Source of the DNA: Candidatus Latescibacterota bacterium
GTDB lineage: Bacteria; Latescibacterota; UBA2968
Reading direction: 5' to 3'
Length of the DNA stretch: 64,000 nucleotides
NCBI GenBank assembly: GCA_965222605.1
Contig: OZ244960.1
Coordinates: 2,912,001 to 2,976,000, forward strand
Program-made: the position numbers and the translations under genes
The notes under the pieces: model-generated
Database searches by the model: none
Seen by the model: the letters and a program-made list of their open reading frames with translations, nothing else
Told to the model about the DNA's origin: nothing
In this document: positions 7,578-29,241 of the stretch, piece after piece
Position numbering within the stretch: position 1 is the first letter of the stretch
How the letters are laid out: each line of letters opens with the position of its first letter

Positions 7578-7578
7578 A

Positions 7579-8901: not shown

Positions 8902-8979
8902 GTGCGCATTCTTCTCGACACGTCTTACCTCTACGATCTAATGGAGACACACGGCAAGTTCTCGGATAGAGAACATTGA
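8902..8979 (+). pseudogene. Truncated VapC/PIN toxin stub (25 aa)
   Basis: GTG-RILLDTSYLYDLMETHGKFSDREH-stop directly after the antitoxin; only the first PIN strand (ILLDT) remains. Confidence 0.7.
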
Positions 8980-9011
8980 GCACCCACTGGCCATCACAGT
9001 CTGAACTCAGA

Positions 9012-9908: not shown

Positions 9909-10046
9909 AAAACTCTCCTTTGCTTCTCATCATAAAATTGCGCGATTTCGCCCCAAACATACGCGATTGCCAATACGAGACGCAATATTTTTATTTTCTA
10001 TAAAAAATGTCGGACCATTCCCCGTGCCCGCCCGTATCTATTTCCC

Positions 10047-10075
10047 GTAGGGGACGGTCCCCGTGCCGTCCCGTG
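10047..10075 (+). repeat. GTAG-type REP palindrome (family A)
   Basis: GTAGGGGACGGTCCCCGTGCCGTCCCGTG; exact reverse complement at 38146-38174, variant near 56420, related GTAG element near 55350. Confidence 0.8.
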
Positions 10076-10202
10076 CGATCCAGAAGGTTTTGACCGCTAA
10101 TCACAATCTGAAGGGTGGCGCAATTTCGCCTGATTCCGTACATTAAACCCTTTAAGATGCATGCCTACTGTGCAATATTGATTACCCTGAGTGAGGACCA
10201 CC

Positions 10203-10236
10203 GTCATCGCGGCATGCTTAAAGCCGCGATCCAGTA
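10203..10236 (+). repeat. GTCAT...ATCCAG palindromic repeat (family B)
   Basis: GTCATCGCGGCATGCTTAAAGCCGCGATCCAGTA; near-identical reverse copies at 38111-38144 and about 49670-49703. Confidence 0.75.
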
Positions 10237-10250
10237 ATTATAGATAAACA

Positions 10251-11027: not shown

Positions 11028-11130
11028 CACGCCCCGAATCGCCCACCGCGAGAAACCAAAAATATCGCCTCACCGCACGCGGAAGGGAGATGCAATAATT
11101 TGAATAAATCACTCACAAATCGAAAGCACT

Positions 11131-14100: not shown

Positions 14101-15579
14101 TTGCGTTTGATCAGCGAAAATGATAATGAGAATACTGATGCCCATGTCACAGAGAGACTTTTGTTGATGGAGTTTCAAAACCTGGAGGCACAGGCTCAAT
14201 TCGATCTATTACTTCAATCAGACTTGGAAAATTTTTCGTGGGACTTCTGTAAAGTTTTGCGTCGTCCGACCCGGGACGATATTGGCGCATTAATCACCCG
14301 TTACGCGACCTCTTCGTCCTCTAAACAACGTGTTTTGCTTATCTTATTATCGCATTTACCAGTTGAACTCACGGACAACGCTTGGTCATGGGTTGAGCGT
14401 TTCCGGAAACACCAAGACGATGAACTTCGGGGATTTGCATTCCAGATTCTGACTTGTGCCAATCCAATGCGATTTGGTCGGACGCTTGAAGCTGAGGGTT
14501 GGTCTTGGAGTCCGAGTGAAAACATTTATGTAAATCATTGTGGCACGAGTGCTCTTATCAAAGCCACGTTAGATATTCCTTTCGAAGATCTTGTACCACG
14601 ACTGGCACCTTGGCAACTGCTAAAAGCTACTCGCCTGCGCGGAGCTATTCCCACGGAAGTTCAGTTGGCAGCTAAAAAACTCAATCCGCGATCCTTAAAT
14701 AAAAACATCAGAATTGACTCAGAAGATTTCGAGCTAGTTCTGACGCATGCAATGGATACAGTGGAACAATGGCTTGCGGACTATTGCGAGATGACGGAGG
14801 TTTCTCGTTACAATTCCTCAGCCGATAAATTCTTCTTGGCTCTTTGTCAGGCTCTGCTTACTCATGCACCTGAGAAAGGGGCGCAGTTGTGGCATAAGTT
14901 ACGCTCGAACAGTATAACGCGATACATTGGTAAGGCAGGTGTGGAAGACCTCATCCACATGGTATTCAGAGTGCCACACTCACCAGAGGTAATGAAACTC
15001 CGAGAGGAGTCGGTTGGATTAGAATACTTTCACAACGATCAGAAGCTTTTCGAACTCGCAATCGCTGCGTCATTCAATGGGCAATCCCATTGGCTTGACA
15101 GCTTTATTCAAAATGACCGAGCATCAGCACTCGTTTGGCGGCAGAGCCGCGCGGAAGTGCTTGCGGGTTTCACCGTGAACAATTCACTACCTGTTGCTGG
15201 AGCCTGGCCGGATGGCGAGACCCGCACAACCCATGCGAAATTTACTCTGATATCAGCACACCATAGATGGATTGAAGCGTGCGCTCACCACTGGTGGCGA
15301 GCTTTTCTCAACGCTTGCGACCCGGCCGAGGCTTGCGCAGCCTGGGTACTGTTTTTGCACTCTGCTGATCGTCGCGCCTGGGTGTGGATCGGTCAAGACA
15401 TTGAAACCGCTGATCATTCGACAGATCTTTTTCAACGGAAGATAAACCATTTTCGACTTAACCGATCGAACCTGGAGAGAGCCATGAAGAAACGAGAAGG
15501 AAATTTTGGTGACAAACTGGACCAGCACTTTTTGTACCGCAAGACTGTGCGGAGTGCAGGTCCCTGGTTCGGGCGATGA
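11131..15579 (+). CDS. 1482-aa PD-(D/E)xK nuclease - STAND/NACHT-like NTPase with long helical C-terminus (Avs-like)
   Basis: N-terminal 'QHGGDAG...LECKKY' nuclease motif, Walker A GLEGIGKT, Walker B LTVFFDGL, IIVSTR; located in a defence island. Confidence 0.7.
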   Translation: MTLSEQQHHKKLKEELQQGGKPSNLEHLAAALLDRLLDVPFPVAESGYQHGGDAGTAGHQGRKLRLECKKYSDTSSLGERGLLGEIDQALKRDQALEAWILVATRPVGGTLQDSLVQKGESIGVPIVIIDWAKNHDIAELAALCAFAPDVVEEQFSKEAGEAAHALQPISGKAIERLRRNLQSWYLGYDALRTLSHKCLDEIWNSPEESNAKLGQNAAGGAQEKKVKRSTVHEALNTWWEGPAHNDAPVAVVGLEGIGKTWATLDWLIDKRDEQPIVLVIPSSAVVAGHVSETSVKQILADRLHEMSKGIRDRDHWLRRLENLLKRPTNEGPVLTVFFDGLIQESSTPWLHILKILQGKTFKERVRIIVSTRTHHFEETLSELRGLVNLAERVDVDLYDTAPGSELDQMLAFENLTQADLHQDVIELARKPRLFKLVVHFREELVEADQITVHRLLWEYGRDYFGVRADRSFSQNEWSDWLTEIAQKHRTDIEYKYSLRSLGETVARPDLSKNEVYARLSDIIDGRFATRNSSGNFKIIPAVVAHALGAALLNDLYQEASPNLENLNAKLAEWFDPISGLDERTEILRAAVSILVEQGRAAESLIPGVLVTAWLQSQNVPDEHRQELADLAPNFPDALLDTIEHSDSYVYDSARFWAVNALRNIPREDTAAFTKIIQRSLRWMSIVSRDVDMQPNANKERDKQRSDRLKNLIGIDSSQRIKVCDVELEWVDHDTGFGAWQTTVPSIIEVFPLSKALPIFEVAAVSVAVRGQNASWDGLKWICLLKEDDPDDMVKALRDLSEEIRLRTPEPGIHPDLPKRVAALLLKLTGHKADEDKAVDIDPDLDRLFSYEKDYLQKPSQSWFPLERRHAEITLDDRELPLTYRVQRTKELWLDPSFEPPATFVAELLKAAESIDVEKLDRYMETTSEDYDFEVLEPVLARCAPDLLADLIRRKMQNLSTSPPEFRQSRVIQATNHLILADEAEIEAMRKLRLISENDNENTDAHVTERLLLMEFQNLEAQAQFDLLLQSDLENFSWDFCKVLRRPTRDDIGALITRYATSSSSKQRVLLILLSHLPVELTDNAWSWVERFRKHQDDELRGFAFQILTCANPMRFGRTLEAEGWSWSPSENIYVNHCGTSALIKATLDIPFEDLVPRLAPWQLLKATRLRGAIPTEVQLAAKKLNPRSLNKNIRIDSEDFELVLTHAMDTVEQWLADYCEMTEVSRYNSSADKFFLALCQALLTHAPEKGAQLWHKLRSNSITRYIGKAGVEDLIHMVFRVPHSPEVMKLREESVGLEYFHNDQKLFELAIAASFNGQSHWLDSFIQNDRASALVWRQSRAEVLAGFTVNNSLPVAGAWPDGETRTTHAKFTLISAHHRWIEACAHHWWRAFLNACDPAEACAAWVLFLHSADRRAWVWIGQDIETADHSTDLFQRKINHFRLNRSNLERAMKKREGNFGDKLDQHFLYRKTVRSAGPWFGR

Positions 15580-15673
15580 GATGATCCTCCAGCCTGCCTG
15601 ATGCGAGAAGGGCTACGGGCATTAGATCAGACGTAAAAATGCCTGATGATGAGCGAGGATTTCCAACCCATGG

Positions 15674-17185
15674 TTGATTGACCATTCATGTAACGAGACT
15701 TCCACGAAAGAGCAAACAGCAGTGACTTCAAACTTCTCACTCCACGACCTGACCGCCCTCGGCGAAGGCTTTACCACAGAGTTCAAACGCTCTATGTCTA
15801 ATCTGGGCCGTGAAATCTGTGCCTTTGCGAACGCGACTGGCGGCGTCATTCTGATCGGCGTAACAGACGGCGGCGAAATCGTTGGTGTTGCGAACCACAA
15901 CAAGCTGAAGTCGCAGGTCCAGTCCATCGCGCGATCAGCGGATCCGCCGATAGCAGTGGAAATGGACTCCGTCAATGGCGTACTCTGTATCACAGTGCCA
16001 GAGCAACATGGCAAGCCCTACTCCTTTGGCGGCAAGTATTACATCCGCGAGGGCGCGAGTTCCCAACAAATGTCACGCGACGAAATCCGCGAGTTCTTCT
16101 TCAAGGAAGGCCTGATTCGATTCGACAAGACGCCGTGTCAGAACTTCAAAATAGATAGAGACTTGACACCAGAGGCGTGGGCGCGGTTTGCCGCGAGGGC
16201 GCATATCCCCGATGGAATGGACCCAATCGTGGCATTGGAGAACCTGCACTTGCTCGAAGGTGGGACCATGACCCATGCTGGCGCGTGGCTATTAGCGGAA
16301 GACATCACACGCTACACATTGACAGCGGGCGTGACCTGCGCGGTTCTTCGCGGCGTGACCAATACGCATATCATCGACCTCAAGAACTTCACAGGCGATA
16401 TCTGCGCCATCTACGATGACTGTATAGCCTACATGCAGGCGAAGCTGAACACAGCCCTGATCCCCCATGCTCACGGACGGGACGAACGGCTCGAACTGCC
16501 CGAGGATGCACTCCGCGAGGCAATGGTCAACGCCATCGCGCATCGAGACTACCGCTCCAACGCTAACGTGCAGGTACACATATTCCATGATCGACTGGAA
16601 ATCGTCACACCGGGCGGGTTGCCAGCAGGAATGCGTGAAGAAGATTTGGGAATCAGAAGCGTACCGAGGAATCCACTTCTATTCGGGATGTTCCACCGCA
16701 TGGGAATGGTAGAACAGATCGGCAGCGGTATCCGGCGCATTCGACAGGAATGCCGTGACTACGGGGTAGATGAACCCGTGATTGAGGTCTCAGATAATTG
16801 GGTAGTCACAACATTCAAGCGACAAGTTGAACATGGTGGGCAGATAACCCCGCATGTCACCGAACAAGTGCCCTACAGATATCCTATAAGTCTGGAGCAA
16901 GTCAAGACCAAGCCAGAGTCACAGCCAGAGTCACAGCCAGAGTCACATCAAGCAAGCCTGGAACAGAGAGTTTTGTCACTTCTTATCCAGGCTCCCCTGT
17001 CGAAATCGTCCATCTCAACTGGTCTGGGTCAAAAAACCGTGTCAGGACAGCTCAACAAAGTGATTCGCTCGTTGAGAAAAACCGGGTTGATCAAATACAC
17101 AATTCCAGAAAAACCGGGAAGCCGGTTGCAGAAGTACCAAATTACGGAAAACGGCAGAAACAGATTGGCAGAATTAGCAAATTGA
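15674..17185 (+). CDS. AlbA_2/Schlafen-domain protein with HATPase_c_4 (RecG-C-like) domain and C-terminal HTH
   Basis: GEGFTTEFKRS, CAFANATGGVILIGV, REAMVNAIAHRDY, PRNPLL, EQIGSGI, TIPEKPGSRLQKY; start may be GTG 15722. Confidence 0.85.
   Translation: MIDHSCNETSTKEQTAVTSNFSLHDLTALGEGFTTEFKRSMSNLGREICAFANATGGVILIGVTDGGEIVGVANHNKLKSQVQSIARSADPPIAVEMDSVNGVLCITVPEQHGKPYSFGGKYYIREGASSQQMSRDEIREFFFKEGLIRFDKTPCQNFKIDRDLTPEAWARFAARAHIPDGMDPIVALENLHLLEGGTMTHAGAWLLAEDITRYTLTAGVTCAVLRGVTNTHIIDLKNFTGDICAIYDDCIAYMQAKLNTALIPHAHGRDERLELPEDALREAMVNAIAHRDYRSNANVQVHIFHDRLEIVTPGGLPAGMREEDLGIRSVPRNPLLFGMFHRMGMVEQIGSGIRRIRQECRDYGVDEPVIEVSDNWVVTTFKRQVEHGGQITPHVTEQVPYRYPISLEQVKTKPESQPESQPESHQASLEQRVLSLLIQAPLSKSSISTGLGQKTVSGQLNKVIRSLRKTGLIKYTIPEKPGSRLQKYQITENGRNRLAELAN
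16911..16946 (+). repeat. 3 x 12-bp tandem repeat AGCCAGAGTCAC (PESQ linker)
   Basis: Read directly; identical array at 38252-38287. Confidence 0.9.
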
Positions 17186-17212
17186 TGTGTGCATCAACGG
17201 AGAATTGGAAAA

Positions 17213-19252
17213 ATGGATACCCGGCAAGACACGATATTCGGCGACTCCAGCGAGAGCCAGATGTCATTCGGAATGGATGACGGAAGCGGCCTTCGTGTGG
17301 TAAACGCGAAATTCAACTCAGAAAAGAAATTCGACTGGGACGTATTCAATGGATTCGACACCCTGCGGGTGTTGACCTATTCAGTGAGCGTGGATGCCAT
17401 CGTTAGAATGCTGGATAAATACTCTTTCACGACCTTCGAGTGCGTATTCGGCTATGAAGGCATTATCCGCGACATGAAAGACATTCTCGCATTTCAGAAG
17501 ACAGTAGTCGGCAATACCCGTGCCGCAATCATGGGCCTCAAAGACGAACGGCACATACAAATTCTCGAAAAAGTACATGCGGGACAAGCCCACTTCAGAG
17601 TCTTGAGAAAGTCCATAGCCCACGCAAAGCTCTACCTGCTATCCAATTCAGATGGCCGAAAACGAGTAATAATCGGATCCGCCAACCTGTCGGAACGGGC
17701 ATTCTCCGGTGACCAACCAGAGACACTGGTCATGTTCGACAATGATGCGAATGCCTGGGAACACTACAATAATATGTTCAACACCATCCGAGACTCCGCC
17801 TCAGACGAAATCGAGCTACCCGATGAGAAAATAACGCGAGCAGAAATAGAAATTCGGGAAACTCCGTCTATGAACGATGGACCGGCCACACTCATAATTG
17901 AGCCACCTGCACCCGATGAAGTCGAAACCTCCTTTCCGGTTCAGGTAGAGCGCGTAGAAAAGGTCCGTGCCGCTCTCGGCCCTGCGCTATCATCGGTCAT
18001 GCCGCCCATACGCAATGGCAAACAACGCATCACCCAAAACATCAAGCGCCAGATAAATCGCGTGGTCCTCGTCAAGTCTGCCGAGGAAGTCGATACCCGC
18101 AACTTCCATATCGACAGAACCACGCGCCAGGCCACCCTATCGGGCGAGATATTCCCACTAAAATGGGATGCCGATTCGGTAAAAACAGATGCGCGTCTGC
18201 TCCTGGAATACTTCGAGAACTACGCTGCCTTTGAGGGAGATGTAAAACGGCTGCAACGGGATTACTTCACCTTGATGGCGTGGCTGTACTTCTCGCCCTT
18301 CATGTGCGACATGCGGACACTTGCCATGGTGCGAGACAGCGATGTGGTCCGTTTTCCTTCTTTTGGTATCGTCTTTGGAAAATCCAACTGCGGCAAAACC
18401 AGCCTGATTGACACGCTCATGACATCCATGTTCGGTTATGCCAACACAGTGGATAAACGAAGTTTCACCACATCCCGGCTTCGCGGATTGCAGGCGTCGT
18501 ACAAGCGGTTTCCGGTTGTGTTTGATGATATAGGGCAACGTGCCTTCAACCAGTATGGCAAAGATATGATTAAAGAGGAATTACAGCCCCTTGTTTCTGA
18601 ATATCCGTGCTTCATACTCGCAATGAATGCCGAACCCCAATCATTTCCCGACGAAATAGTCAAGCGCAGCCTGATGATATACACGACGACTGCGCTGCCC
18701 TCTCACGATGAGGAAATCCGGCAGCGTTTGCAAGGTGATGTACAGAAGATGCGCCGCGGTCTAACGGGACATCTCTATAAGCGATATCTCGCTGAAATTA
18801 TGGAACGCATTGACCCCGGACATCTTCCGGATGATTGGCTGGCGATTTCATCTCAGGTTATAAGCGACATTATATCAGAGGGAATAGGCAAAACACCGCC
18901 CGAATGGTGCCGCAAAATAACCTGGCAAAACTATGCGGGAAAGCGATACGACAGAGTTAAAGCAGCCCTCGAAAGTCTATTGCGTCAGGCGTCCTATGTA
19001 AAAAAAGAAGGCGATGCATCCAAAGGATGGACAATTGACGGAGAGAAAATCATCGTCTGGGAACCACGCGATGCCTTTGGGAGACGTGCATTCAACTGGG
19101 AAGATGTTCCCTCTACACTAATTGACCAGGACGCCAGCCACGGCGACACGACGATTTTGCACAAGACCAGCTTGCAGAAATTTATAGGCCACACGCTCTA
19201 CCCGCCTGGTAAACTGAATAAAATAAAGAGTTTGTTCAGTTATCGTTCCTGA
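17213..19252 (+). CDS. PLD/HKD-type nuclease (NgoFVII-like) fused to a P-loop NTPase
   Basis: HAKLY...IIGSANLS nuclease motif; Walker A GKSNCGKT and Walker B VVFDD; alternative start GTG 17189. Confidence 0.72.
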   Translation: MDTRQDTIFGDSSESQMSFGMDDGSGLRVVNAKFNSEKKFDWDVFNGFDTLRVLTYSVSVDAIVRMLDKYSFTTFECVFGYEGIIRDMKDILAFQKTVVGNTRAAIMGLKDERHIQILEKVHAGQAHFRVLRKSIAHAKLYLLSNSDGRKRVIIGSANLSERAFSGDQPETLVMFDNDANAWEHYNNMFNTIRDSASDEIELPDEKITRAEIEIRETPSMNDGPATLIIEPPAPDEVETSFPVQVERVEKVRAALGPALSSVMPPIRNGKQRITQNIKRQINRVVLVKSAEEVDTRNFHIDRTTRQATLSGEIFPLKWDADSVKTDARLLLEYFENYAAFEGDVKRLQRDYFTLMAWLYFSPFMCDMRTLAMVRDSDVVRFPSFGIVFGKSNCGKTSLIDTLMTSMFGYANTVDKRSFTTSRLRGLQASYKRFPVVFDDIGQRAFNQYGKDMIKEELQPLVSEYPCFILAMNAEPQSFPDEIVKRSLMIYTTTALPSHDEEIRQRLQGDVQKMRRGLTGHLYKRYLAEIMERIDPGHLPDDWLAISSQVISDIISEGIGKTPPEWCRKITWQNYAGKRYDRVKAALESLLRQASYVKKEGDASKGWTIDGEKIIVWEPRDAFGRRAFNWEDVPSTLIDQDASHGDTTILHKTSLQKFIGHTLYPPGKLNKIKSLFSYRS

Positions 19253-19283
19253 CATCACTTAAAAACAAAAAAGGAAATGACTC

Positions 19284-21350
19284 TTGCCTCAACTCGAACA
19301 CATTGAAGCCATTGAAAAGCGCCTGTGGGGAGCAGCCGATAACCTGCGGGCCAACTCCACTTATGCCAGCAACGAATACTTTCTCCCGGTCATGGGCCTG
19401 GTATTCCTGCGCTATGCGTACAGCCGCTACCTATCTGTAAAGGACGACATTGAAGCCAACCTGCCCACCCGCGGCGGTAAAAAACGAGCACTCACCAAAG
19501 AGGACTTCTCCCAGAAAAACGCCATCTATCTCCGGCCCAACGCACAGTTCGATTACCTCGTCGCCCTGCCCGACAGCGAGGACCGCGCCAAAGTCGTCAT
19601 CGAAGCAATGGAATCCATTGAAGCCGACTATGAAAGCCTGCGAGGTGCATTGCCCAAGAGCGAATACCAGGAACTGGACAACGACGTTCTCGGCCAACTC
19701 CTCCGCACACTCAACCCCGGCGCACTAAAACAAGTCTCTGGCGATGTCTTCGGACGCATCTACGAATACTTTCTCACCCAATTCGCCGACGACAAGGCTC
19801 ACGACGACGGCGAATTCTTCACTCCCGTCTCACTCGTGTCCCTAATCGCCCATGTACTCGAACCCGACTGCGGCACAGTACTCGACCCGGCCTGCGGATC
19901 TGGCGGCATGTTCGTGCAAAGTGCACGCACGGTTGAAGAACACGGCCAGCATCCCACCGAACAACTCACCTTCCGCGGCATAGAAAAAAACGCCACCACC
20001 ATCCGCCTTGCCAGAATGAACCTCGCAGTACATGGCCTTGAAGGCGACATCCGTCAGGCCATCACCTACTATGAGGACCCGCACGAATTGCTCGGCAAAG
20101 CCGACTACGTAATGGCCAATCCTCCCTTCAATGTCGATGAGATCGACGCGGACAAAGTCAAAACAGATCCACGCCTGCCCTTCGGCCTGCCCGGCGTGAA
20201 TAAAGAGAACAAAGTCAGCAGCGGCAACTACGTCTGGATCAGCTACTTCTATAGCTACCTGAATGAAACGGGCCGCGCAGGCTTTGTCATGTCCTCCCAG
20301 GCATCGAGTGCTGGCAGTGGCGAAGCCAAAGTGCGCCAAAAACTGGTAGAAACCGGCGATGTAGAAGCCATGATCGCCATTCGCTCCAACTTTTTCTACA
20401 CCCGCACCGTCCCTTGCGAATTGTGGTTTCTCAACCGCGCCAGACCCGAAGCCCATCGCGACAAAGTACTGATGATCGACGCCCGCAACATCTATCGCCA
20501 GGTCACGCGCAAAATATACGACTTCAGCCCCGAGCATGAGAAAAACATCCTCGCCATTATCCACCTCTATCGCGGCGAAACCGAGCGATTCCTCAACCTG
20601 GTATCCAACTACTTGCGTCGCGTCGTGGAAGAATCCCATGCGTGCTTCGAAATCAACGATGGCGAAACCATCCATCCCCTACCCGACTTCGTCAACGCGC
20701 TCACCCGGTTGCACGACCTGTTCGCGCCATCCCTGAAAACCCTGCCGAAAAACGGACAGCATGCCGAAACCCTCGCCGAATACGACAAAGCGCGGACAGC
20801 ATTCGCCGAGGCTATTGAGCAATTCCGCACCACCATCACAAAAACCGCACAAAATACCAGCACCGACCTGAACAAACAGGTGGCAGAATTCGCCCCCCTG
20901 ATCGAAATTAGTCGCGAACTATCCGAACACACCGACAGCCTCTACAAACTCGCCATCCGCATAACAGATATCTGCGAGACCTCGATCAATAACAGGACCG
21001 ACATCACCCGCGCCCGTAGAACCGCAGACGAAGCGCGAAAGATCGCTGTCGAACAACTCAAACAAGTACACTACTTCTACCAGCAGGCACAATGGCTCAT
21101 CAGGCGTTTCCCTGAAGCGAAACTATGCGACGTAGAAGGACTGGTCAAACTCGTAGATCGCGCCGAAATCGAAGCCAACGACTGGAGCCTGACCCCTGGC
21201 CGCTACGTCGGCGTTGCACCCGAAGAAGAGGACGAAAATTTTGACTTTGCCGAGGCCCTGCACGAGATCCACAAGGAAATAGAAGAACTCAACATCGAAG
21301 CCGTATCATTGGCAGCGACGATTAAGCGGAATTTTGAAACACTGCTTTGA
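19284..21350 (+). CDS. hsdM: Type I restriction-modification methyltransferase subunit
   Basis: LWGAADNLR, GEFFTP, DPACGSGGM, ANPPFN, WSLTPGRYVG. Confidence 0.95.
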   Translation: MPQLEHIEAIEKRLWGAADNLRANSTYASNEYFLPVMGLVFLRYAYSRYLSVKDDIEANLPTRGGKKRALTKEDFSQKNAIYLRPNAQFDYLVALPDSEDRAKVVIEAMESIEADYESLRGALPKSEYQELDNDVLGQLLRTLNPGALKQVSGDVFGRIYEYFLTQFADDKAHDDGEFFTPVSLVSLIAHVLEPDCGTVLDPACGSGGMFVQSARTVEEHGQHPTEQLTFRGIEKNATTIRLARMNLAVHGLEGDIRQAITYYEDPHELLGKADYVMANPPFNVDEIDADKVKTDPRLPFGLPGVNKENKVSSGNYVWISYFYSYLNETGRAGFVMSSQASSAGSGEAKVRQKLVETGDVEAMIAIRSNFFYTRTVPCELWFLNRARPEAHRDKVLMIDARNIYRQVTRKIYDFSPEHEKNILAIIHLYRGETERFLNLVSNYLRRVVEESHACFEINDGETIHPLPDFVNALTRLHDLFAPSLKTLPKNGQHAETLAEYDKARTAFAEAIEQFRTTITKTAQNTSTDLNKQVAEFAPLIEISRELSEHTDSLYKLAIRITDICETSINNRTDITRARRTADEARKIAVEQLKQVHYFYQQAQWLIRRFPEAKLCDVEGLVKLVDRAEIEANDWSLTPGRYVGVAPEEEDENFDFAEALHEIHKEIEELNIEAVSLAATIKRNFETLL

Positions 21351-21404
21351 AGTGGGAAGTAGGAAGTGTGAAGTAGGAAGTGTGAAGTAGGAAGTGTGAA
21401 ATGT
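21349..21404 (+). repeat. Heptamer tandem repeat (GAAGTAG/GAAGTGT x8, degenerate ends)
   Basis: gaagtgg gaagtag gaagtgt gaagtag gaagtgt gaagtag gaagtgt gaaatgt, starting at the hsdM stop. Confidence 0.9.
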
Positions 21405-21461: not shown

Positions 21462-21541
21462 TTCCACGATGCGTCCTTCTTGACATAGCCCTATTTTTGT
21501 GATTATCGACCTGATATTTGGAAGATAAAGGGGTACAACAG

Positions 21542-21730
21542 ATGAAAAAATATCAAATCCCTGTGTCCAAACTGGACGATCCCGACATGCAAGCGGCACC
21601 CACCGCGCTTATGCGAGCCGCAAAACGCGCACACCTGATCGCACACCAGACCGGGACCAAAGTCGTGGTCATGCGCGATGGTAAAGTCGTGGAAATTGAA
21701 CCGGATCCGGAGATGTACAACGACATTTGA
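21542..21730 (+). CDS. Small hypothetical protein (type usually found beside zeta-toxin-like kinases)
   Basis: RAAKRAHLIAHQTGTKVVVMRDGKVVEI; a diverged second copy lies at 22990-27133. Confidence 0.65.
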   Translation: MKKYQIPVSKLDDPDMQAAPTALMRAAKRAHLIAHQTGTKVVVMRDGKVVEIEPDPEMYNDI

Positions 21731-21748: not shown

Positions 21749-22675
21749 TCACGCCGTTGAATCTAACATGCCCTCAAAGTCATCAAGACTGGACACCTGT
21801 ATCGCCGCACGGTGCAACTGCTTGAGCTGCTGCACATCGTCAACAGCCGAAATACGAGCAGATAAGGGATGCGTCTCGCTCAGACCAAATCGAATCTCCA
21901 ACACTTCAAGGATAGCTTCGAGCGTGCTTTTTCTTTCCCCTCGCGCAATACCCTGCTCAATGCCTTCCTCAATACCTTCCTCTCTGCCTTCTTGCTTAAA
22001 GTATTGAATAAGAGATGATTCGCGGATGAGATCCATGAGACCCTCCTTCAAAATAATATCAGAAACCGTTTCAGACGCGTAAACCAACTCGCTCAAAACC
22101 GCCATGCCTGCCAGATAATTGGACTTGCGCGTCCGTTCTATGCGGCGCGTCCGAGCCGTGTGAATACACTGATGCAACCACGCTTCTGAGGCCATCCCCT
22201 CAGGTGGTTTCATCAATGGCGTGAAAGGAATCAAACCCGATTGCCCCGATTCGAGGACACGCTGACCTTCTATCTCGATCAGCCGGATCACCTTGTATTG
22301 AATCACCACGCGGTAGCCGGAACGCTCCTGAACATAGTGCCCCGGGTCGGTCTTTCCCGCATTGGGACGCAGGTAAATGACGTTAGAATAGATCGGCAAA
22401 CCGTGATGCTCAATGGCGCGTCCGATATACCCTGCCATACGGCGTGGCATAGGCGGATTGGTACTATCGGTGGTTTGAAATTCATGGTGTACCAATACTT
22501 CTTCATCGCCGATTCGCACGCGGATGAAGCTGTCGCTGCGACGGGCTTCCACCGTGGTTTGCTCTGTTTCGATGACTTCAATGACCTCGACATCGTCTCG
22601 TGCGAGGGCAAAATGGGCGAAGTGGTCGGGATAGTGTTGAATGAGGTATTTGGAGATGGTGTCAATGTCTGCCAT
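21749..22675 (-). CDS. Rpn/YhgA-like recombination-promoting nuclease (PD-(D/E)xK)
   Basis: RRSD...HHEFQ...MPRRMAGY and C-terminal EGREEGIEEGIEQG repeats. Confidence 0.85.
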   Translation of the reverse strand: MADIDTISKYLIQHYPDHFAHFALARDDVEVIEVIETEQTTVEARRSDSFIRVRIGDEEVLVHHEFQTTDSTNPPMPRRMAGYIGRAIEHHGLPIYSNVIYLRPNAGKTDPGHYVQERSGYRVVIQYKVIRLIEIEGQRVLESGQSGLIPFTPLMKPPEGMASEAWLHQCIHTARTRRIERTRKSNYLAGMAVLSELVYASETVSDIILKEGLMDLIRESSLIQYFKQEGREEGIEEGIEQGIARGERKSTLEAILEVLEIRFGLSETHPLSARISAVDDVQQLKQLHRAAIQVSSLDDFEGMLDSTA

Positions 22676-23132
22676 AAGCGATGCCCTGGGTCTGAGGATT
22701 GGCGTCTTTTTAGAACACGAACAGTCAGAATTCCAGCAAACATCAGGCCAATGTCACAACATCGTGCAACAAATGGTATGGACAGCAATCAAATACCCTT
22801 ATTATGTCTTCAATATGCTGTATCGCGCCCTTTTTTTCAACTTGAATTTGTGGATTGCGTGTTTGGCGCAGAACAGCCTCTGTATATTTTGAGCGATGAA
22901 TGGGCGGTCATGTGAAAGATATGCACTATTCGCCTATATGTTCGCCGCGATGTTGCTTGTGTAACATCATTGAGTTATCTTTTGCTTTCGCACTTGTACG
23001 AGCCGCCAAACGCACACACAAAAACGCGCACCAGACCGGCACCAAAGTTGTGATCATGCGCGAGGAGACTATGTAGAATAGTGCCGAAGCGGGTAAAAAA
23101 GTGCGGGATCACGCCATAAGGATAGAGAGGGC

Positions 23133-23171
23133 AATAAAAATAGGACTTGCGCCATAAGCAAGTCCTATTTT
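23133..23171. terminator. Bidirectional intrinsic terminator inside the element end
   Basis: AAAAATAGGACTTGC-loop-GCAAGTCCTATTTTT. Confidence 0.7.
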
Positions 23172-23263
23172 TAATTACAGCTTTTTCAGGAGAAAGTTAT
23201 GGACAAAAAAAAGGCGCCAGAAATGGAACCTGACGTCCGGGATTTTGAAAAAGTTCTTGATGG

Positions 23264-23491
23264 TTATGAAGATTGGCGCCGGCGAAAGGTGCGTCTTTGT
23301 TCAAGCCGAATTTCGAGATCAGCGATCATAGAAGTGGCCACCCCTGCCGCGAACATTACAATCGCCCTTGCTTGATGTTCGTTGAATTGAGATTGGATTA
23401 CGAAGCCTTTGAGTATATCCAAATTCACGTCAAAGGACGGATACCGATATTTAATAAATTCCATCAAATCATCAAATTCTTTGTCGGTCAT
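23264..23491 (-). CDS. Hypothetical 75-aa cargo protein
   Basis: Strong GGGAGG RBS, own predicted promoter and leader terminator. Confidence 0.6.
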   Translation of the reverse strand: MTDKEFDDLMEFIKYRYPSFDVNLDILKGFVIQSQFNEHQARAIVMFAAGVATSMIADLEIRLEQRRTFRRRQSS

Positions 23492-23506
23492 TTCAACGTC
23501 CTCCCA

Positions 23507-23620
23507 TAAAAAAAGCGCAGATTACCCATGATTGCGAGTAACCTGCGTTTTGTGTTGTGTGGTACTTTGTGAGATACCCCTGTGCCCTGACAAAGTAAGG
23601 CAGGAGTCGGGCGTTGTCAA
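23507..23620 (-). promoter_or_regulatory. Sigma70-like promoter with leader terminator hairpin
   Basis: TTGACA (23620-23615) - 17 bp - TACTTT (23597-23592); hairpin plus U-tract at about 23553-23507 immediately before the RBS. Confidence 0.6.
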
Positions 23621-23661
23621 CCCAAAAAAAGGTTCGATTACAAGTTTTTACAAAAAGTCTA

Positions 23662-23805
23662 TTGATTTAACAATAGTATCAACCTATCTTATATACTGTC
23701 ACCAGCTACTGTTGCGATAGAATATGAGATTAAAAGCCTTGACGGACATCCTTACTGGATTCAAAGCCCAGTAGTTTGGTGACAGCCGTCAAGGCTTTTT
23801 TGTTT
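23662..23805 (+). promoter_or_regulatory. Sigma70-like promoter with two-state attenuator-like leader
   Basis: TTGATT - 17 bp - TATCTT; terminator stem AAAAGCCTTGACGG (23732-45) / CCGTCAAGGCTTTT (23786-99); 5' CTGTCACCAGCTACTG (23696-711) is complementary to 23769-85. Confidence 0.6.
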
Positions 23806-23821
23806 TGGGAGGGTATTTGTA

Positions 23822-24001
23822 ATGCAGAGGAATCCACACAAGTGCTACGAACATCGGGACAAAGAGCACCCAGATGTAGTCAACTTAGTCTCGATGTTGG
23901 CGAAATTGCGGAGTTATGGCGGCGGAGATGCTTATTACAGGTGTCCCTATTGTGCGTACTTGAAAGGATTTGAGGATGGCCGCAAAGAGAATGCGACGTA
24001 A
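23822..24001 (+). CDS. 59-aa putative zinc-binding protein (below the ORF-track cutoff)
   Basis: GGGAGG RBS; MQRNPHKCYEH...RCPYCAYLKGFEDGRKENAT. Confidence 0.6.
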   Translation: MQRNPHKCYEHRDKEHPDVVNLVSMLAKLRSYGGGDAYYRCPYCAYLKGFEDGRKENAT

Positions 24002-24265
24002 AACGCCGTGCTAATGGTTGGAGGACCACCGCGCGGCATCGGTTGGTAGGAGAGCCGGGGGTTGTTGTCTGAATAAGTGATTGCGAGCACTGTCAGAGCA
24101 ACGTCCCCCCGGCGATCCCGCCGGAACATGCACACACAGAAAAGGACTTTCTATGATTGATATTCACAGCGGGTAAATGAATTATCGAATAGAGATGTGG
24201 CGTAAAGAGGAACGTATAAACAACAAGGTGATGCAAACTTTGTCAACCCATATTTGGAGAAAGCT

Positions 24266-25153
24266 ATGCAGAAATTCGTTCTGATATTGTGCATTTTAAT
24301 AGTGGGCTGTGCGAAAGTGCCACTGCCTACACAGCCGGAGCAGAGAGAAAACACGACGCCTAATCCGTTGGCCGTTCAGGAATACGAACCGCCCATTCCA
24401 GAAAAAGAACCTTTTAACATTACGATTAAAGGGCTTGAACCCTACCACATGGCCACTTATGGCCTATTCGCGAGGGCGGCGGCAGACAAGTGGGAAAAGA
24501 TTATTGTCGAAGGGTTGCCCGATGTGGGAGAGATTGACGATGTGGTCATAGAATTTCAATGGGGCGGTACAGTTAAAAACTATCTCGCATCAGCACGCCC
24601 TTCCTTACAGCATTTGAGACACGGGAGCGGGCTGCCGTGTTACGGTGTCATAACGCTATACGACCCCATAGATGGATATATCAACAATTATGCTGATTTA
24701 AAAAACAGTGATATAACAAAAATCATCTTCCACGAAATGGGACATATTCTGGGGTTTGATTTGTGGACGCTGACTTACGGCGGACAAGGTGACAAGATAG
24801 AAAGTATTAATGGGGCGCAGTATTTCACGGGAGGAACGGCGATAGACGCCTACCGGGAAGCCCTTTATCAACAGGGCGAAAAATTGGCATACGCGATTCC
24901 CGACCTGCGCCTTCCTATTGAACCCGACGCTTTCCACTGGCGATACCCCGCACTTAAATGGGATGTTATGGCTCCGTTCTTTCACACAGACAACGTGGTG
25001 ACCAAAGTGACAATATGTGCATTAGACGATATGGGCTACACAGTAGATTTGTCGCAGGCTGAGGATCCAAAACCATCTCGGCTTACCAAACCCGCGATTG
25101 GCCGCCCAATTTTCAGGTGTGACGACAACGCCATATACGGGGTGGAGCCATGA
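24266..25153 (+). CDS. Lipoprotein zinc metallopeptidase, leishmanolysin (M8)-like
   Basis: Lipobox LIVGC, HEMGHILGF, distal HW and Met-turn DVM, 'ALDDMGYTV'. Confidence 0.75.
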   Translation: MQKFVLILCILIVGCAKVPLPTQPEQRENTTPNPLAVQEYEPPIPEKEPFNITIKGLEPYHMATYGLFARAAADKWEKIIVEGLPDVGEIDDVVIEFQWGGTVKNYLASARPSLQHLRHGSGLPCYGVITLYDPIDGYINNYADLKNSDITKIIFHEMGHILGFDLWTLTYGGQGDKIESINGAQYFTGGTAIDAYREALYQQGEKLAYAIPDLRLPIEPDAFHWRYPALKWDVMAPFFHTDNVVTKVTICALDDMGYTVDLSQAEDPKPSRLTKPAIGRPIFRCDDNAIYGVEP

Positions 25154-25407
25154 TAGACGAAAAAAAATTGATAGACATTTCTTATGATTATAATGACTGG
25201 ATAGAAGGGGAAGCGTGGAAAAAGATAGAGAAAGAGTTTGGCGTAGAAATTTGGACACTCATAGAACGAGAAGTAAATTTGAAGATAGACTCTTTTATTA
25301 AGACTGAGCTATTAAAGAGAGACCGCACGATCTACGCCCACAGCACTGTTTTCCTTCTAATTGCTGTTGCTCTGACAATTGCTATTTGTTTTTTCTTTTG
25401 GGGATAA
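25150..25407 (+). CDS. Small membrane-anchored hypothetical protein
   Basis: ATGA overlap with the peptidase; C-terminal hydrophobic helix. Confidence 0.55.
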   Translation: MIDEKKLIDISYDYNDWIEGEAWKKIEKEFGVEIWTLIEREVNLKIDSFIKTELLKRDRTIYAHSTVFLLIAVALTIAICFFFWG

Positions 25408-25522
25408 GTGATTTTGGGTTGCATTCCCCCATGCGATTGGTTAAATTAAAAAGGCCGTGTCTATTGCCAGACACGGCCTTCGCTACGAATCACCACTTCC
25501 TCCATAGAAAGAAGGTGTTAAT

Positions 25523-25690
25523 ATGAAAATACGCAAAGATACCAGACAGGTCAAGCCCGGAGACTATGACATTGTATTGAACGCTCCGAAGAAGAAGAAA
25601 GACTGGCGATTGCGAGGGATTAAACAACCGAAGGGCGATTGGCGCATCGCAGGACTTCGTAAAAATAGAAAGGAGAGAGCAAATGTATAA
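25523..25690 (+). CDS. 55-aa basic hypothetical protein
   Basis: GAAGG RBS; internal repeat DWRLRG/DWRIAG; overlaps the next ORF start. Confidence 0.4.
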   Translation: MKIRKDTRQVKPGDYDIVLNAPKKKKDWRLRGIKQPKGDWRIAGLRKNRKERANV

Positions 25691-25880
25691 ATGTTTTTCA
25701 TGTAGTAATTTGGAAAGTCTTGAAAAACGCCTTAATGAATACTCGGAAGAAGGGTACCACGTTCTTGAGATATTCCAAATGCCAACAGAGTCACGCTCGC
25801 AGATAACATTTGCCGTCGTGATGTTCCAAGACAAATCCAGCGATAAGACTGGCGGAGCCAGTTACACTACTGATAAGTGA
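25683..25880 (+). CDS. 65-aa hypothetical protein (DUF4177-like pattern)
   Basis: AGGAG RBS; 'LEKRLNEYSEEGYHV' pattern. Confidence 0.5.
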   Translation: MYKCFSCSNLESLEKRLNEYSEEGYHVLEIFQMPTESRSQITFAVVMFQDKSSDKTGGASYTTDK

Positions 25881-26820
25881 TCGGCACGGGCGCAACCAAA
25901 TCCCGATAACGCAGCCTTTTCCCTTCAAATCCTTGCACGATCAGTTTCATCTGGTCGATGGTATCACGCGGTCGGATGTTCTGGCGTGTGACAAATTCGA
26001 GAACATATCTCTCCAAATGTTTTCGGCTGACGTAGTGGTACACGCCCATAATGGCGCGTTTTATCATCGACCAGAAAGATTCGATGCCGTTGGTGGAGCA
26101 CTCCCCGCGCACATATTCGCCCCGTGAATGACTGACCCATTCGTGGGGGTAGTCCATCCCCCTGTATTCATAAGCACCGTCGGTATAGACGGTGGCCCCA
26201 TCCTCTACGTGCTCGGAAATAAAGCCTTTGAGCGTTTCTTCGTCTGCCTGGTCAATAACGGTTGCGGAGACTTGTTTTGTCTCCCGCTCTTTCATACCGA
26301 CAACGCCCATTTTCCCGTCTCGCCAGTTCTCATGCAGCTTCTTCTTTGCGTGTTTGTTGGCTTCCTTTCCCCCGATATACGTTTCATCGACTTCTACCGG
26401 CCCGCCAAACAGGGTTTTTTTCCCGGAGAATGATTCGCGTATCCTGTGCATCAAGAACCACGCCGTTCTTTGTGTGACATTCAGATCGCGGTGCATCTTG
26501 AGAGAGGAAACCCCCTTCAAAGATGTATCGAACAGATACAGGGCGATTATCCATATCTGATAACCGAGATTTGAGGATTCCATCATCGTACCCAGCTTCA
26601 CCGAAAAGCGTTTGTCGCAATCTCGGCAGCGGTGGGGCATACTCGCGTGTGCGGCATGCTCGTTCACGTTGACACTTCCACAGCGCGGACACGCCATACC
26701 ATCAGGCCAGCGTGTGTGAATGAACCACTTTTCGGCACTCTCATCATCGGGGAACATCTTGAACAACTGAATCAGAGAGATACCTTCACGTTCAAACCTA
26801 CCTGGTGCGTTGTTAGCCAT
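25867..26820 (-). CDS. IS1595-family DDE transposase
   Basis: Zn ribbon RWPDGMACPRCGS...CRDC, VEVDETYIGG, VYTDG, TNGIESFW, YVLEF; GAGG RBS before ATG 26820. Confidence 0.95.
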   Translation of the reverse strand: MANNAPGRFEREGISLIQLFKMFPDDESAEKWFIHTRWPDGMACPRCGSVNVNEHAAHASMPHRCRDCDKRFSVKLGTMMESSNLGYQIWIIALYLFDTSLKGVSSLKMHRDLNVTQRTAWFLMHRIRESFSGKKTLFGGPVEVDETYIGGKEANKHAKKKLHENWRDGKMGVVGMKERETKQVSATVIDQADEETLKGFISEHVEDGATVYTDGAYEYRGMDYPHEWVSHSRGEYVRGECSTNGIESFWSMIKRAIMGVYHYVSRKHLERYVLEFVTRQNIRPRDTIDQMKLIVQGFEGKRLRYRDLVAPVPITYQ

Positions 26821-26877
26821 GGGCACACCTCATAGCTTTGCCTTGACTTTTGGCTCAACACACCTTATTTTTGTTTT

Positions 26878-26966
26878 ATCGGGGAAGGAACTTATGTCTG
26901 CAATGACCAATTCCCTTTAGGGGCTTACGTTTTTGGCGAAACGTAAGCCTTCTTTTTATCCCCATA
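26878..26966 (+). ncRNA. Putative small RNA antisense to the transposase leader
   Basis: TTGACT - 17 bp - TATTTT promoter (26843-71); hairpin GGCTTACGTTT/AAACGTAAGCC plus U-tract; opposes a minus-strand promoter TTGATT - 17 bp - TATCTT (27023-26995). Confidence 0.4.
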
Positions 26967-27144
26967 AAAAAATAAGGGGTTACGAATTACTATTAAGATA
27001 ACTCTGCAACCCCTTGAAATCAAGTGATTTTATGCTCATTTGAGCACTGTTTTTTTCGGCACTATTCTACATAGTCTCCATGCGCGATGGCAAAGTCGTG
27101 GAAATTGATCCAGAGATGTACAACGACATTTGAGGTAGAGTATA

Positions 27145-27348: not shown

Positions 27349-27837
27349 ATGAAAACTCAACAATTGAAAGTCTGGAGGTGGACATCAACAGGATTTCGAA
27401 CAGCAGATGGTGCTTCGGTTATCGCAGAAGGGCAAACTTATGCGACATCGGCGGGGTGGCGTTTTGAAAACCGATCTGAAATGATTGTAGCAATAAAAGA
27501 AGGATTGCCAGTAGCGACATTTGACGCATTAAAAAATGCTATGGGTATTTCTGAACAAGCTCTGGCTACTGTAACTAAAATTGCTGTACAGACACTGACA
27601 CGCCGAAAAAAAGAGGGACGATTGCATATCGATGAATCGGAACGACTGTTGCGTATTGGTATGCTGTATGATCGGGCTGTAGAGGTTTTGGGAGGACAGG
27701 AAGTTGCTCGTCAATGGTTTGCAACGCCATTAACTGCTCTTGGCAGCATTTCTCCACTGGATTATGCAGATACAGAACCAGGTGCTCGAGAAGTTGAAGA
27801 CCTTTTGGGACGCATTGAGTACGGGGTATTTTCATGA
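27349..27837 (+). CDS. Xre/MbcA/ParS-family antitoxin (DUF2384)
   Basis: TLTRRKKEGRL..DESERLLR, ARQWF..P..ALG, GAREVEDLLGRIEYGVFS. Confidence 0.9.
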   Translation: MKTQQLKVWRWTSTGFRTADGASVIAEGQTYATSAGWRFENRSEMIVAIKEGLPVATFDALKNAMGISEQALATVTKIAVQTLTRRKKEGRLHIDESERLLRIGMLYDRAVEVLGGQEVARQWFATPLTALGSISPLDYADTEPGAREVEDLLGRIEYGVFS

Positions 27838-27875
27838 TGCTGACAGCCTGGCGAATTGTGCAGGCACATCAAACC
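27834..27875 (+). pseudogene. RES toxin stub
   Basis: ATGA-coupled MMLTAWRIVQAH, then similarity is lost. Confidence 0.6.
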
Positions 27876-28038
27876 ACCGCTGAACCCCTGGTAAGGGGAT
27901 TATCACATCGTCCCACATTCCGCAAAACTACATTACTGATCACTCTGAAAAACTCGCGCCACTGGTGCGAGAAATAGGTTAGTTGCATAAGAGAATCAAT
28001 GTGATGAACTTGCAGAAGAATTTTAGAGGGCAGGGAAT

Positions 28039-29241
28039 ATGAGTTGGCAAGAACTTACATTTGGTAACTTCGCAGAAATCCAACCGCAGGTGAAACTCGA
28101 GAAGGGCACTGCCTATTCATTTATTGGAATGGCCGATGTTCTGCCTCACACAAAGAATGTTATTCCAGGTAGCACACGAACTTGGAAGGGTAGTGGCGGC
28201 TCTAAATTCGAGAACGGAGACATAATTTTTGCTCGCATTACCCCATGTTTAGAACACGGAAAGACTGCAAAAGTTAGCAATCTTACCGATTCTAAAGGTT
28301 TTGGTTCTACAGAGTTCTTTGTCTTTCGTGATCGGGAAGGCATATCCGACCCAGACTACATTTACTATTTAGCTCGTTCGCCTGTGATTCGAGAGCCAGC
28401 AATTAAAAGCATGACTGGAGCCTCTGGAAGACAGCGAGCACAAAAAATAGTCGTCGAGAACACGAGCATCCGAGTACCGGAAATCCAAGAGCAACGCCGC
28501 ATCGCCTCCATCCTCTCCGCATACGACAACCTGATCGAAAACAACCAGCGGCGGATTCAATTGCTGGAACAGTCGGCGCAGCTACTCTACAAGGAGTGGT
28601 TCGTCCACCTTCGCTTCCCCGGCCATGAACACGTCACCATAACCGATGGCGTCCCGGAAGGGTGGGAGAGAAAGACGATTGCCGAGGTGTGCGAAACTGT
28701 CGGTGGGGGCACTCCGTCAACTAAAGTATCGGAATATTGGGGCGGTGATGTGACATGGATCGTTCCCACCGATGTGACGAAAAACGACTGCCTGATCCTA
28801 CTTGACTCGGAACGCAAAATTACCGAGAAGGGGCTTCGTGAATCGTCCGCCAAAATGGTACCAGCTAACACCATTCTGATGACAAGCCGCGCATCTGTGG
28901 GATTTTTCGCGCTTATGGATATTGCAGTCTGCACGAATCAGGGATTTATCAATATCATTCCTCATGATGAGGAAATGAGAATGTACCTGCTTTTTAACCT
29001 TATGAGCCGGGTCGCCGAGATTCGTAGTAACGCGAAGGGCACAACCTATCCTGAGATAAGCAAAGGACGATTTCGGCAGATGGATATTGTGATTCCGACA
29101 AGAAATCTCGTCGTTGACTTTGCCAAAACCGTCTGCGATATTATGCAACAAGTGCGCTACCTGAAGCATTCAACGCTCAAACTCACCCAAGCCCGCGACC
29201 TGTTTCTGCCGCGGTTGATGAATGGGGAGATTTCAGTATGA
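28039..29241 (+). CDS. hsdS: Type I RM specificity subunit
   Basis: Two TRDs, EQRRIASILSAYDNLIENN central spacer, QARDLFLPRLMNGEI tail. Confidence 0.95.
   Translation: MSWQELTFGNFAEIQPQVKLEKGTAYSFIGMADVLPHTKNVIPGSTRTWKGSGGSKFENGDIIFARITPCLEHGKTAKVSNLTDSKGFGSTEFFVFRDREGISDPDYIYYLARSPVIREPAIKSMTGASGRQRAQKIVVENTSIRVPEIQEQRRIASILSAYDNLIENNQRRIQLLEQSAQLLYKEWFVHLRFPGHEHVTITDGVPEGWERKTIAEVCETVGGGTPSTKVSEYWGGDVTWIVPTDVTKNDCLILLDSERKITEKGLRESSAKMVPANTILMTSRASVGFFALMDIAVCTNQGFINIIPHDEEMRMYLLFNLMSRVAEIRSNAKGTTYPEISKGRFRQMDIVIPTRNLVVDFAKTVCDIMQQVRYLKHSTLKLTQARDLFLPRLMNGEISV

Follow-up and report, generated by a model that had tools for sequence, protein, structure and literature searches.

Two small genes that diverge from one another at the left end of a transposon, each with a predicted intrinsic terminator placed directly before its ribosome site, are the subject of this analysis. 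They are found in a 64,000-nucleotide (nt) stretch of DNA from a Candidatus Latescibacterota bacterium (contig OZ244960.1, forward-strand positions 2,912,001 to 2,976,000), a stretch described in its entirety below as ‘the window’ and within which all positions are numbered. The transposon is a 4,016-base-pair (bp) transporter insertion sequence (IS) of the IS1595 family, found at 23064-27079. The reading of these two genes that is put forward here is one of leader attenuation, that is, with a regulated leader on the plus-strand side and a plain one on the minus-strand side, of genes that are otherwise unrelated. This reading is a tentative one, viewed as possible but rated somewhat short of an even chance. 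Transcription start sites, actual termination, and use of the alternative fold that is described below are all things which I infer.

The argument may be stated briefly. As the two genes diverge, any promoter serving them must lie within the approximately 185 bp found between their two hairpins. Each sense transcript would then have to cross a terminator abutting a Shine-Dalgarno (SD) sequence, and expression thus would be set by read-through, which is to say, by leader attenuation. With the plus leader, an upstream segment is predicted as well to be capable of pairing in a manner that excludes the terminator.

Predicted terminators before two divergent genes

The minus-strand gene, of 75 amino acids (aa) and no known family, is found at 23264..23491 in the list of open reading frames (ORFs), with its ATG at 23491. 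A ribosome site, GGGAGG, lies 8 nt 5' of that ATG, at 23500..23505, and the predicted intrinsic terminator of the leader is found at 23508..23547 on the same strand. The latter consists of a hairpin (23547-23516) with a 13-pair stem, including six G-C pairs, and a loop of 6, followed by a U7 tract (T7 at 23514-23508), and its stability is -18.2 kcal/mol on the minus strand and -15.4 kcal/mol on the plus strand. The plus-strand gene, of 59 aa and also of no known family, is found at 23822..24001, with its ATG at 23822 and a GGGAGG 9 nt 5' of that ATG, at 23807..23812. Its leader terminator, at 23732..23806, is larger, combining an outer stem of 14 bp, an inner hairpin, and a U-tract, with a minimum free energy (MFE) of -41.1 kcal/mol. 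The arms of the outer stem, 23732-23745 and 23786-23799, are complementary at 14 of 14 positions, and the U-tract (T6-G-T4, 23796-23806) directly abuts the GGGAGG.

With both genes, that is, GGGAGG lies at most 2 nt 3' of the U-tract of a sense-oriented intrinsic terminator, and in both leaders this terminator is predicted from a G+C-containing stem-loop plus a U-tract on the transcribed strand. A loose, home-made scan for junctions consisting of a terminator, then an SD, and then an ORF of at least 40 codons recovers nine in the 64 kb. Two of these, with 12- and 14-pair stems, belong to the minus and plus leaders, and a third is found within the same element. This third junction consists of a hairpin near the left end of the element, then AGGAGA, and then a 58-codon plus-strand ORF (23199-23375) that has no Pfam match. 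The latter shares 112 nt with the 3' end of the 75-aa gene, and is thus unlikely to be a gene itself. SD sites more generally precede 19 of 35 mechanically called host gene starts. Terminator-like sites number 12 in the transposon (23064-27079) versus 3.9 +/- 2.0 expected, or about threefold, with no enrichment in the host stretches 1-20000 (19 versus 23.1 +/- 4.8) and 41001-61000 (29 versus 23.8 +/- 4.1). The strong ones include 25481-25450 (minus), 26920-26951 (plus), and 27033-27046 (plus), the last being just inside the right end.

A sequence-only reading of this same DNA had listed the hairpins, U-tracts, and GGGAGG sites just described, and all are present, position for position, as is the transposon within which it placed the genes (i.e., 25-nt terminal inverted repeats, an 8-bp duplication, and an IS1595 transposase). 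Its claim of a leader terminator before each gene is borne out as well, with sense-oriented intrinsic terminators located directly 5' of both SDs. It had also suggested promoter motifs located back to back between the hairpins. These consist, on the minus strand (23592..23620), of TTGACA (23620-23615), a 17-nt spacer, and TACTTT (23597-23592) and, on the plus strand (23662..23690), of TTGATT (23662-23667), a 17-nt spacer, and TATCTT (23685-23690). As counted from these motifs, the leaders would be approximately 78 nt (minus) and approximately 110 nt (plus) in length, rather than both being of about 100 nt as had been said.

The genes had been described in addition as ‘twins’, and this may be kept to the extent that their layout is alike, but not as a statement of kinship. 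The 75-aa and 59-aa proteins lack similarity, with no alignment between them produced by BLASTP, and the two leaders align only over their last 31 columns, which represent U-tract, SD, and ATG. As judged from these comparisons, the two genes and their leaders are not homologous to each other.

Each ORF has relatives, and therefore both are probably genes. For the 59-aa protein a word-index search returned two, P0002, at 73% identity and encoded on 11 contigs, and P0003, with identities of 73% and 74% respectively over the aligned part. The core is strictly conserved across the three, and a C-x2-H ... C-x2-C pattern (C8-x2-H11 plus C41-x2-C44 in the 59-aa protein) is common to all. That pattern suggests a small zinc ribbon, with zinc-ribbon matches among PDB sequences being non-significant (E of 0.7-0.8). 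None of 176 candidates scored as longer forms of the 59-aa family, and the additional N-terminal residues of P0003 are not explained by simply shifting the frame of P0002. For the 75-aa protein the word-index search found only itself, whereas an exhaustive HMMER search found one distant relative, P0006, of 69 aa (32% identity over residues 1-65, E of 4.3e-5). A third HMMER match, to a repetitive 1053-aa protein, was discarded as a low-complexity artefact. The maximum 19-residue hydropathy of the 75-aa protein is borderline, at 1.71 (residues 43-61), with P0006 possessing N and R there, and the 59-aa protein has a low value, of 0.53.

Neither small protein has a match of significance in Pfam, NCBIfam, PADLOC, PHROGs, or among PDB sequences. 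tblastn searches of plasmids and phages with both proteins plus P0006 likewise returned nothing, a single match of E 0.4 being taken as noise. The suggestion that these proteins may be toxic consequently finds no backing in these databases, nor in antisense complementarity between either leader and the opposite mRNA.

Predicted competing folds in the plus leader

In addition to its terminator, the plus leader possesses a candidate antiterminator. The 5' arm of this helix, at 23696..23711, overlaps promoter-like hexamers of both strands, and the 3' arm, at 23769..23785, is located inside the terminator loop. The arms are joined by 16 pairs, one of which is a G-U, with a single U bulged out, and the resulting helix excludes the terminator. 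Competing folds had been claimed for this leader and they survive a folding check, with an MFE of -41.1 kcal/mol for the terminator versus -34.6 kcal/mol for the forced antiterminator. Pairing of the first 20 nt of the leader with the remainder yields -25.2 kcal/mol, versus -11.3 +/- 2.8 for shuffled sequences, none of 1000 of which are as good, and pairing of the upstream 37 nt with the terminator region yields -29.1 kcal/mol, versus -16.0 +/- 2.9 (none of 500 as good). When considered by transcript end, RNAs that stop at 23785-23790 have the antiterminator as their MFE structure, and those extending to 23795 or beyond have the terminator. The terminator/antiterminator alternative thus modelled for the plus leader would appear to be a real one, and a terminator-excluding helix that is able to form first, as expected of an attenuator, is predicted for the plus leader only and not for the minus.

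Rough barriers between the folds were obtained by searching heuristically for paths, with the prefactor of the rate set at an assumed 1e6 per second. They are 7.7 kcal/mol in going from early local hairpins to the antiterminator, 3.1 kcal/mol to the terminator, and 21 kcal/mol in going from antiterminator to terminator. The antiterminator step would take approximately 0.2 s, which is of the same order as the time for transcription of the following 15-20 nt, and the plus leader therefore would seem to be poised rather than simply ‘off’. That it should be off by default, as had been proposed, is thus not what these barriers suggest; kinetically poised would be the better description.

As envisaged, the first 16 nt of the plus leader would pair with the segment found in the terminator loop, thereby preventing the terminator, and the outcome would be fixed during the brief interval that precedes synthesis of the terminator's 3' arm. 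What tips that outcome might be a factor, protein or RNA, that frees or occupies the 5' arm, or might be polymerase pausing, or else translation of a 16-codon leader frame (23724..23774, plus strand). The latter lacks a ribosome site, covers the 5' arm of the terminator, and has its stop codon inside the 3' arm of the antiterminator. No sequestration of the SD is predicted for the read-through form of this leader. The minus leader, by comparison, would represent a plain, strong terminator, with its gene either constitutively damped or dependent upon a trans-acting antitermination factor.

A number of observations weigh against attenuation as the interpretation, and the roughness of the barriers just given is among them. 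The minus leader displays no competing fold, with 158 of 500 and 244 of 500 shuffles pairing equally well with its terminator arms, and the RNA-level switch that had been proposed for both sides consequently can be retained for the plus leader but not for the minus. When 5112 windows of 117 nt were sampled from the same 64 kb, about 10 proved to have local complementarity as strong as that of the plus leader. Real sequence, that is, is heavier-tailed than are shuffles, and therefore the antiterminator pairing is unusual rather than unique. Fold stability is also not strongly strand specific (-40.5 kcal/mol for the plus leader versus -34.2 on the opposite strand). As both folds are nearly as stable on that opposite strand, a palindrome that functions instead at the level of DNA may be at issue.

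The promoters provide further difficulties. Although both suggested motifs do exist, with 17-nt spacers, they score no better than chance: the minus motif is at 9/12, with its -10 hexamer at only 3/6, which is below the scan rule, and the plus motif is at 8/12, below the scan threshold, whereas sites of at least 9/12 number 11 in 3 kb versus 4.9 +/- 1.7 in shuffles. On the plus strand an overlapping alternative, CTGTCA-16-TAGAAT (23696-23723; 9/12), outscores the motif first suggested, and on the minus strand GTGACA-18-TACTAT, with a TG extension (23702-23673), scores as well or better than its counterpart. The plus alternative would start RNA near 23730, i.e., downstream of the 5' arm, and the switch would thereby be abolished.

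Comparative evidence is similarly unhelpful to attenuation. Not one of 4227 families of Rfam 15 reaches its gathering score in the window, and with 23100-24300 searched at E up to 10 there are 12 matches, all with E of at least 1 and with 13.6-21.8 bits against cut-offs of 44-83, a negative which covers P1 C4, P4-type, and IsrK RNAs only if these are included in that release. A profile scan of genome contigs (A1 alignment) matched 37 stretches, of which four loci were kept and none is a confirmed homologue: two of these (L001 and L004) are motif-only matches in unrelated ORFs, i.e., spurious, and the other two (L002 and L003) match over 11 residues only.

Other readings of the same locus

Structure, which is counted here in favour of attenuation, is not confined to the two leaders. 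Folding z-scores in 110-nt windows peak in non-coding blocks only, at -4.7 for the plus leader, -3.4 for the minus leader, -5 to -7 for the left-end hairpin, and -4.8 for a block at 24024-24133, against a background of -0.26 +/- 1.12 in which one of 120 windows is at or below -3. The block at 24024-24133 is within a spacer, 24002-24265, found between the 59-aa gene and a metalloprotease gene. This spacer is highly structured (z of -3.46), lacks an Rfam match, and includes a long hairpin (24049..24118, plus strand), 5' of the protease gene, the local complementarity of which exceeds that of every other segment sampled across the window. On the minus strand, 24114-24223 has a z of -5.7. An exact 10-nt direct repeat, TGATTGCGAG, is present at 23529-23538 and 24078-24087, i.e., in the loop of the minus terminator and in the apical loop of the plus-RNA hairpin at 24049-24118, such that the two loops are mutually complementary. 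Two further exact repeats, of 10-11 nt, connect the same two regions. The TGATTGCGAG repeat could be the basis of a loop-loop contact or could be chance.

From a different perspective, the terminated leaders might themselves be the main products, that is, as divergent small RNAs of approximately 78 and 110 nt which occasionally are extended by read-through to form mRNA, much as seems to be the case with IsrK, which has been described for a horizontally acquired element (PMC4825925, so far as that source treats it). Each unit does run from promoter-like sequence through a structured RNA to a strong terminator, and 10 nt of the minus-terminator loop are an exact complement of the apical loop of the hairpin at 24049-24118. 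That match may nevertheless be chance, with three exact direct repeats of at least 10 nt found in 1237 nt and, by my own estimate, about 0.9 expected. Pairing of each leader with the opposite transcript is also no better than expected, as it was equalled by 50 and by 218 of 300 shuffles, there is no match to an Rfam small RNA family, and strong SDs found directly 3' of the U-tracts point to translation of the downstream ORFs. Small RNAs as the principal output consequently appear unlikely.

It is similarly doubtful, though conceivable, that the terminators are real and the antiterminator helix is there by chance, leaving genes that are either expressed at a low and constant level via leaky termination or else are silent cargo. 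The roughly 10 in 5112 sampled windows of equal strength are in keeping with this view, as are the minus leader doing without an alternative fold, an alternative promoter that would leave out the 5' arm, and the tiny size of the protein families, with two relatives and one relative, respectively. Countering it are the shuffles, with pairing as observed reached by none of 1000 and none of 500, and the location of the 3' arm, which falls exactly within the terminator loop, with its end at the foot of the terminator's 3' arm, as would be expected of an antiterminator.

The same sequences may also be viewed as functioning as DNA or as insulation, with the 16-nt inverted repeat serving as an operator pair that flanks the plus promoter and the hairpins serving as two-way terminators that shield the small genes from transcription entering from the transposase gene or from beyond the element. 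The centres of the arms are separated by 73.5 bp, or about seven helical turns, and the arms overlap promoter-like hexamers of both strands. Both hairpins possess A-runs 5' and T-runs 3' and are nearly as stable on the other strand. Terminator-like hairpins are found as well at both ends of the element and between transposase and cargo (23135-73, 25481-25450, 26920-51, and 27033-46), and for IS200 a two-way terminator is described as providing a shield from impinging transcription (PMC4513863, in its relevant passages). Terminator-like sites number 12 in the transposon (23064-27079) versus 3.9 +/- 2.0 expected, or about threefold, with no enrichment in the host stretches 1-20000 (19 versus 23.1 +/- 4.8) and 41001-61000 (29 versus 23.8 +/- 4.1). 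The strong ones include 25481-25450 (minus), 26920-26951 (plus), and 27033-27046 (plus), the last being just inside the right end.

The longer U-tracts (U7 and U6-G-U4) are sense-facing in both cases, however, which implies that sense transcription is stopped at least as well as antisense, and both structures gain stability on the sense strand through their G-U pairs. Domain searches, furthermore, reveal no DNA-binding domain in either small protein, and the 16-nt repeat lacks a further copy in the window, with its one match being itself. An operator or insulator role is thus judged to be distinctly unlikely. Least probable, and very much so, is that the left end represents a self-contained RNA circuit, i.e., two divergent terminator-gated units the short leader RNAs of which have further effects in trans, for instance through contact of the minus-terminator loop with the 24049-24118 hairpin of the cargo transcript. 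If true, then such a circuit would couple two small proteins plus cargo to the state of element or host, and no RNA-circuit module of such a kind is known to have been described for IS1595-family elements.

I therefore proceed with leader attenuation as the interpretation, the plus leader being regulated and the minus leader plain, in the tentative sense given at the outset. As it stands, and going by sequence, the locus would be a single-copy candidate for what is a very common regulatory design. If the plus leader does switch, then it would represent an unclassified attenuator within the cargo of a transporter IS. Transporter ISs, if this is true, would import their own insulated and tightly gated expression units, which bears on the tolerance of passenger genes in new hosts.

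The element and known systems

The limits of the transposon are sharply defined. Its left terminal inverted repeat, of 25 nt (23064..23088, plus strand), is matched perfectly, at 25 of 25 positions, by the right one (27055..27079, minus strand), with a repeat search giving two matches with 0 mismatches versus 0 expected. The element is flanked by an 8-bp target-site duplication, ATGCGCGA, at 23056..23063 and 27080..27087, which can be read directly from the sequence, 8 bp being the duplication length of the IS1595 family. Its sole transposase (25867..26826, minus strand) matches DDE_Tnp_IS1595 (1.2e-37) and Zn_ribbon_IS1595 (1.4e-6), both above cut-off, and is matched as well by 442 plasmid records, the best of which is 41% identical and annotated as an IS1595 family transposase.

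Found inside of the terminal inverted repeats, as cargo, are the 75-aa and 59-aa genes, which are located at the left end, a metalloprotease-like lipoprotein, and further small ORFs. The lipoprotein-like zinc metalloprotease (HExxH; 24266..25153, plus strand) has only weak family matches, which score below cut-off (Peptidase_M8, E of 0.0021; NF038122, E of 3e-6). Near the left end is the hairpin at 23135..23173 that was noted above, with a 16-bp perfect stem, a 7-nt loop, an A-run 5' and a T-run 3', and with stabilities of -24.4 kcal/mol (plus) and -23.7 kcal/mol (minus). It looks like a two-way terminator. A further terminator-like hairpin, of 7 pairs and with T8 and the tail CCTTTTTTTT, is found 3' of the 75-aa gene (23207..23235, minus strand). 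The segment 23696-23785 was considered as a possible miniature inverted-repeat transposable element, and this was rejected given flanks that are without target duplication. No relatives at the DNA level were found by blastn of the element against plasmids nor of its left part against phages.

The insertion target was a second, partial copy of a 70-codon ORF (21518-21730) of no known family. The flanks, 22989-23063 and 27088-27133, rejoin into that partial copy, and are 83% and 92-96% identical, respectively, to the intact copy, which is located 1.4 kb to the left of the transposon. More broadly, hsdM and hsdS, which belong to a type I restriction system, are located on either side of the transposon, and the surrounding stretch is rich in defence genes. 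The restriction genes are dispersed, with hsdM at 19284-21350, hsdS at 28039-29241, and hsdR at 38313-41567. Between them, besides this transposon, are found an Rpn-like gene (21749-22675; weak TIGR01784), a gene for a 1099-aa Schlafen/AlbA-domain protein, an IS4-type transposase (32730-34094), and genes with ABC-3C CTD10 and DUF2326 domains. Three overlapping copies of a repeat with a 14-nt period (GAAGTGTGAAGTAG-like) extend over 21349-21400, starting from the hsdM stop codon. An Xre/MbcA/ParS-type antitoxin gene, of 162 aa (27349-27977 region), is followed by just a 47-codon ORF before hsdS, and its usual toxin partner thus seems to be missing or shortened. An ORF of 1482 aa (11131-15579), located between Fic-domain and Schlafen/AlbA-HATPase genes, has no match in Pfam (1e-5) or PADLOC. 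The 64 kb include a single HIP1 motif, and thus lack a cyanobacterial signature, and in its sulfatase- and glycoside-related genes the DNA resembles that of planctomycete- or verrucomicrobium-like heterotrophs.

All three of the features by which an IS1595 transporter IS is recognized are present, i.e., a transposase with zinc ribbon, terminal inverted repeats with an 8-bp duplication, and passenger genes. As with typical transporter ISs, that is, a single IS1595-type transposase, terminal repeats, and an 8-bp duplication are accompanied by passengers located between the repeats. In contrast to the typical case, the cargo here is of no known families, the weakly matching metalloprotease excepted. 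The transporter IS class is limited to the IS1595 and IS66 families, at least in what one source states of it (10.1101/2021.05.26.445724).

Two forms of toxin-antitoxin system can be set aside on the features that were examined. A type I system would call for an antisense RNA to a toxin mRNA, and there is none, 50 of 300 and 218 of 300 shuffles pairing as well. With regard to a type III (ToxIN-like) system, the only tandem repeat is one of 8 nt x 2, found inside the 75-aa gene, and there is no PADLOC match.

Leaders in which a terminator and an antiterminator are alternatives serve as the expression platforms of riboswitches and are found also with protein- or ribosome-dependent attenuators such as those of trp and pyr. 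With these classical attenuators the present locus shares a promoter-proximal leader, a terminator just 5' of an SD, and an upstream segment that pairs with part of the terminator. It differs in its lack of a recognizable sensor, of an Rfam aptamer, and of an SD for the leader frame, as well as in having no repeated protein-binding motif that could be seen. The 3' arm of the antiterminator, moreover, is here located within the loop of the terminator, and does not overlap the terminator's 5' arm.

The arrangement had been likened to phage P1 c4 and P4 CI attenuation. Shared with those systems are complementary segments in one leader region, premature termination, and a mobile element, but the likeness does not extend further, with a covariance-model check against Rfam providing no match and with there being no second copy of the target. 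As summarised in one source, a processed P4 CI RNA pairs in trans with two targets, seqA and seqC, causing termination (PMC4825925). Here there would be a single pair, in cis, pairing of which would prevent termination. When sought with up to 3 mismatches on both strands of the window, the 16-nt segment has but one match, itself, and its sole complement, which is bulged, is in cis. A system of the P4 CI/P1 C4 type was ruled out on this basis, i.e., one cis pair and no further copy.

With IsrK, of the Gifsy-1 prophage, a short form of the RNA acts in trans on the read-through form, according to the portion of the same source that concerns it (PMC4825925). There, as here, the element has been horizontally acquired and, going by that portion, a short RNA ends at a terminator found directly 5' of small ORFs, with read-through giving rise to the mRNA. 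The present leaders differ in having neither sequence nor Rfam match to IsrK and in having no sequestered SD predicted for the read-through form.

The arrangement had been thought, lastly, to be undescribed. A leader terminator plus antiterminator is however a textbook design, and terminators carried by an IS are described for IS200 in the pertinent part of PMC4513863; as a kind, therefore, the arrangement is not undescribed. IS200, in that account, possesses a two-way terminator plus an SD-sequestering hairpin at its left end (PMC4513863). What is shared with IS200, so far as that source goes, is the use of IS-encoded hairpins which limit expression and which shield from impinging transcription. 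What differs is position: the IS200 terminator, as presented there, is upstream of the transposase start site, whereas the terminators considered here separate two passenger genes, rather than the transposase, from the only region in which their promoters could lie.

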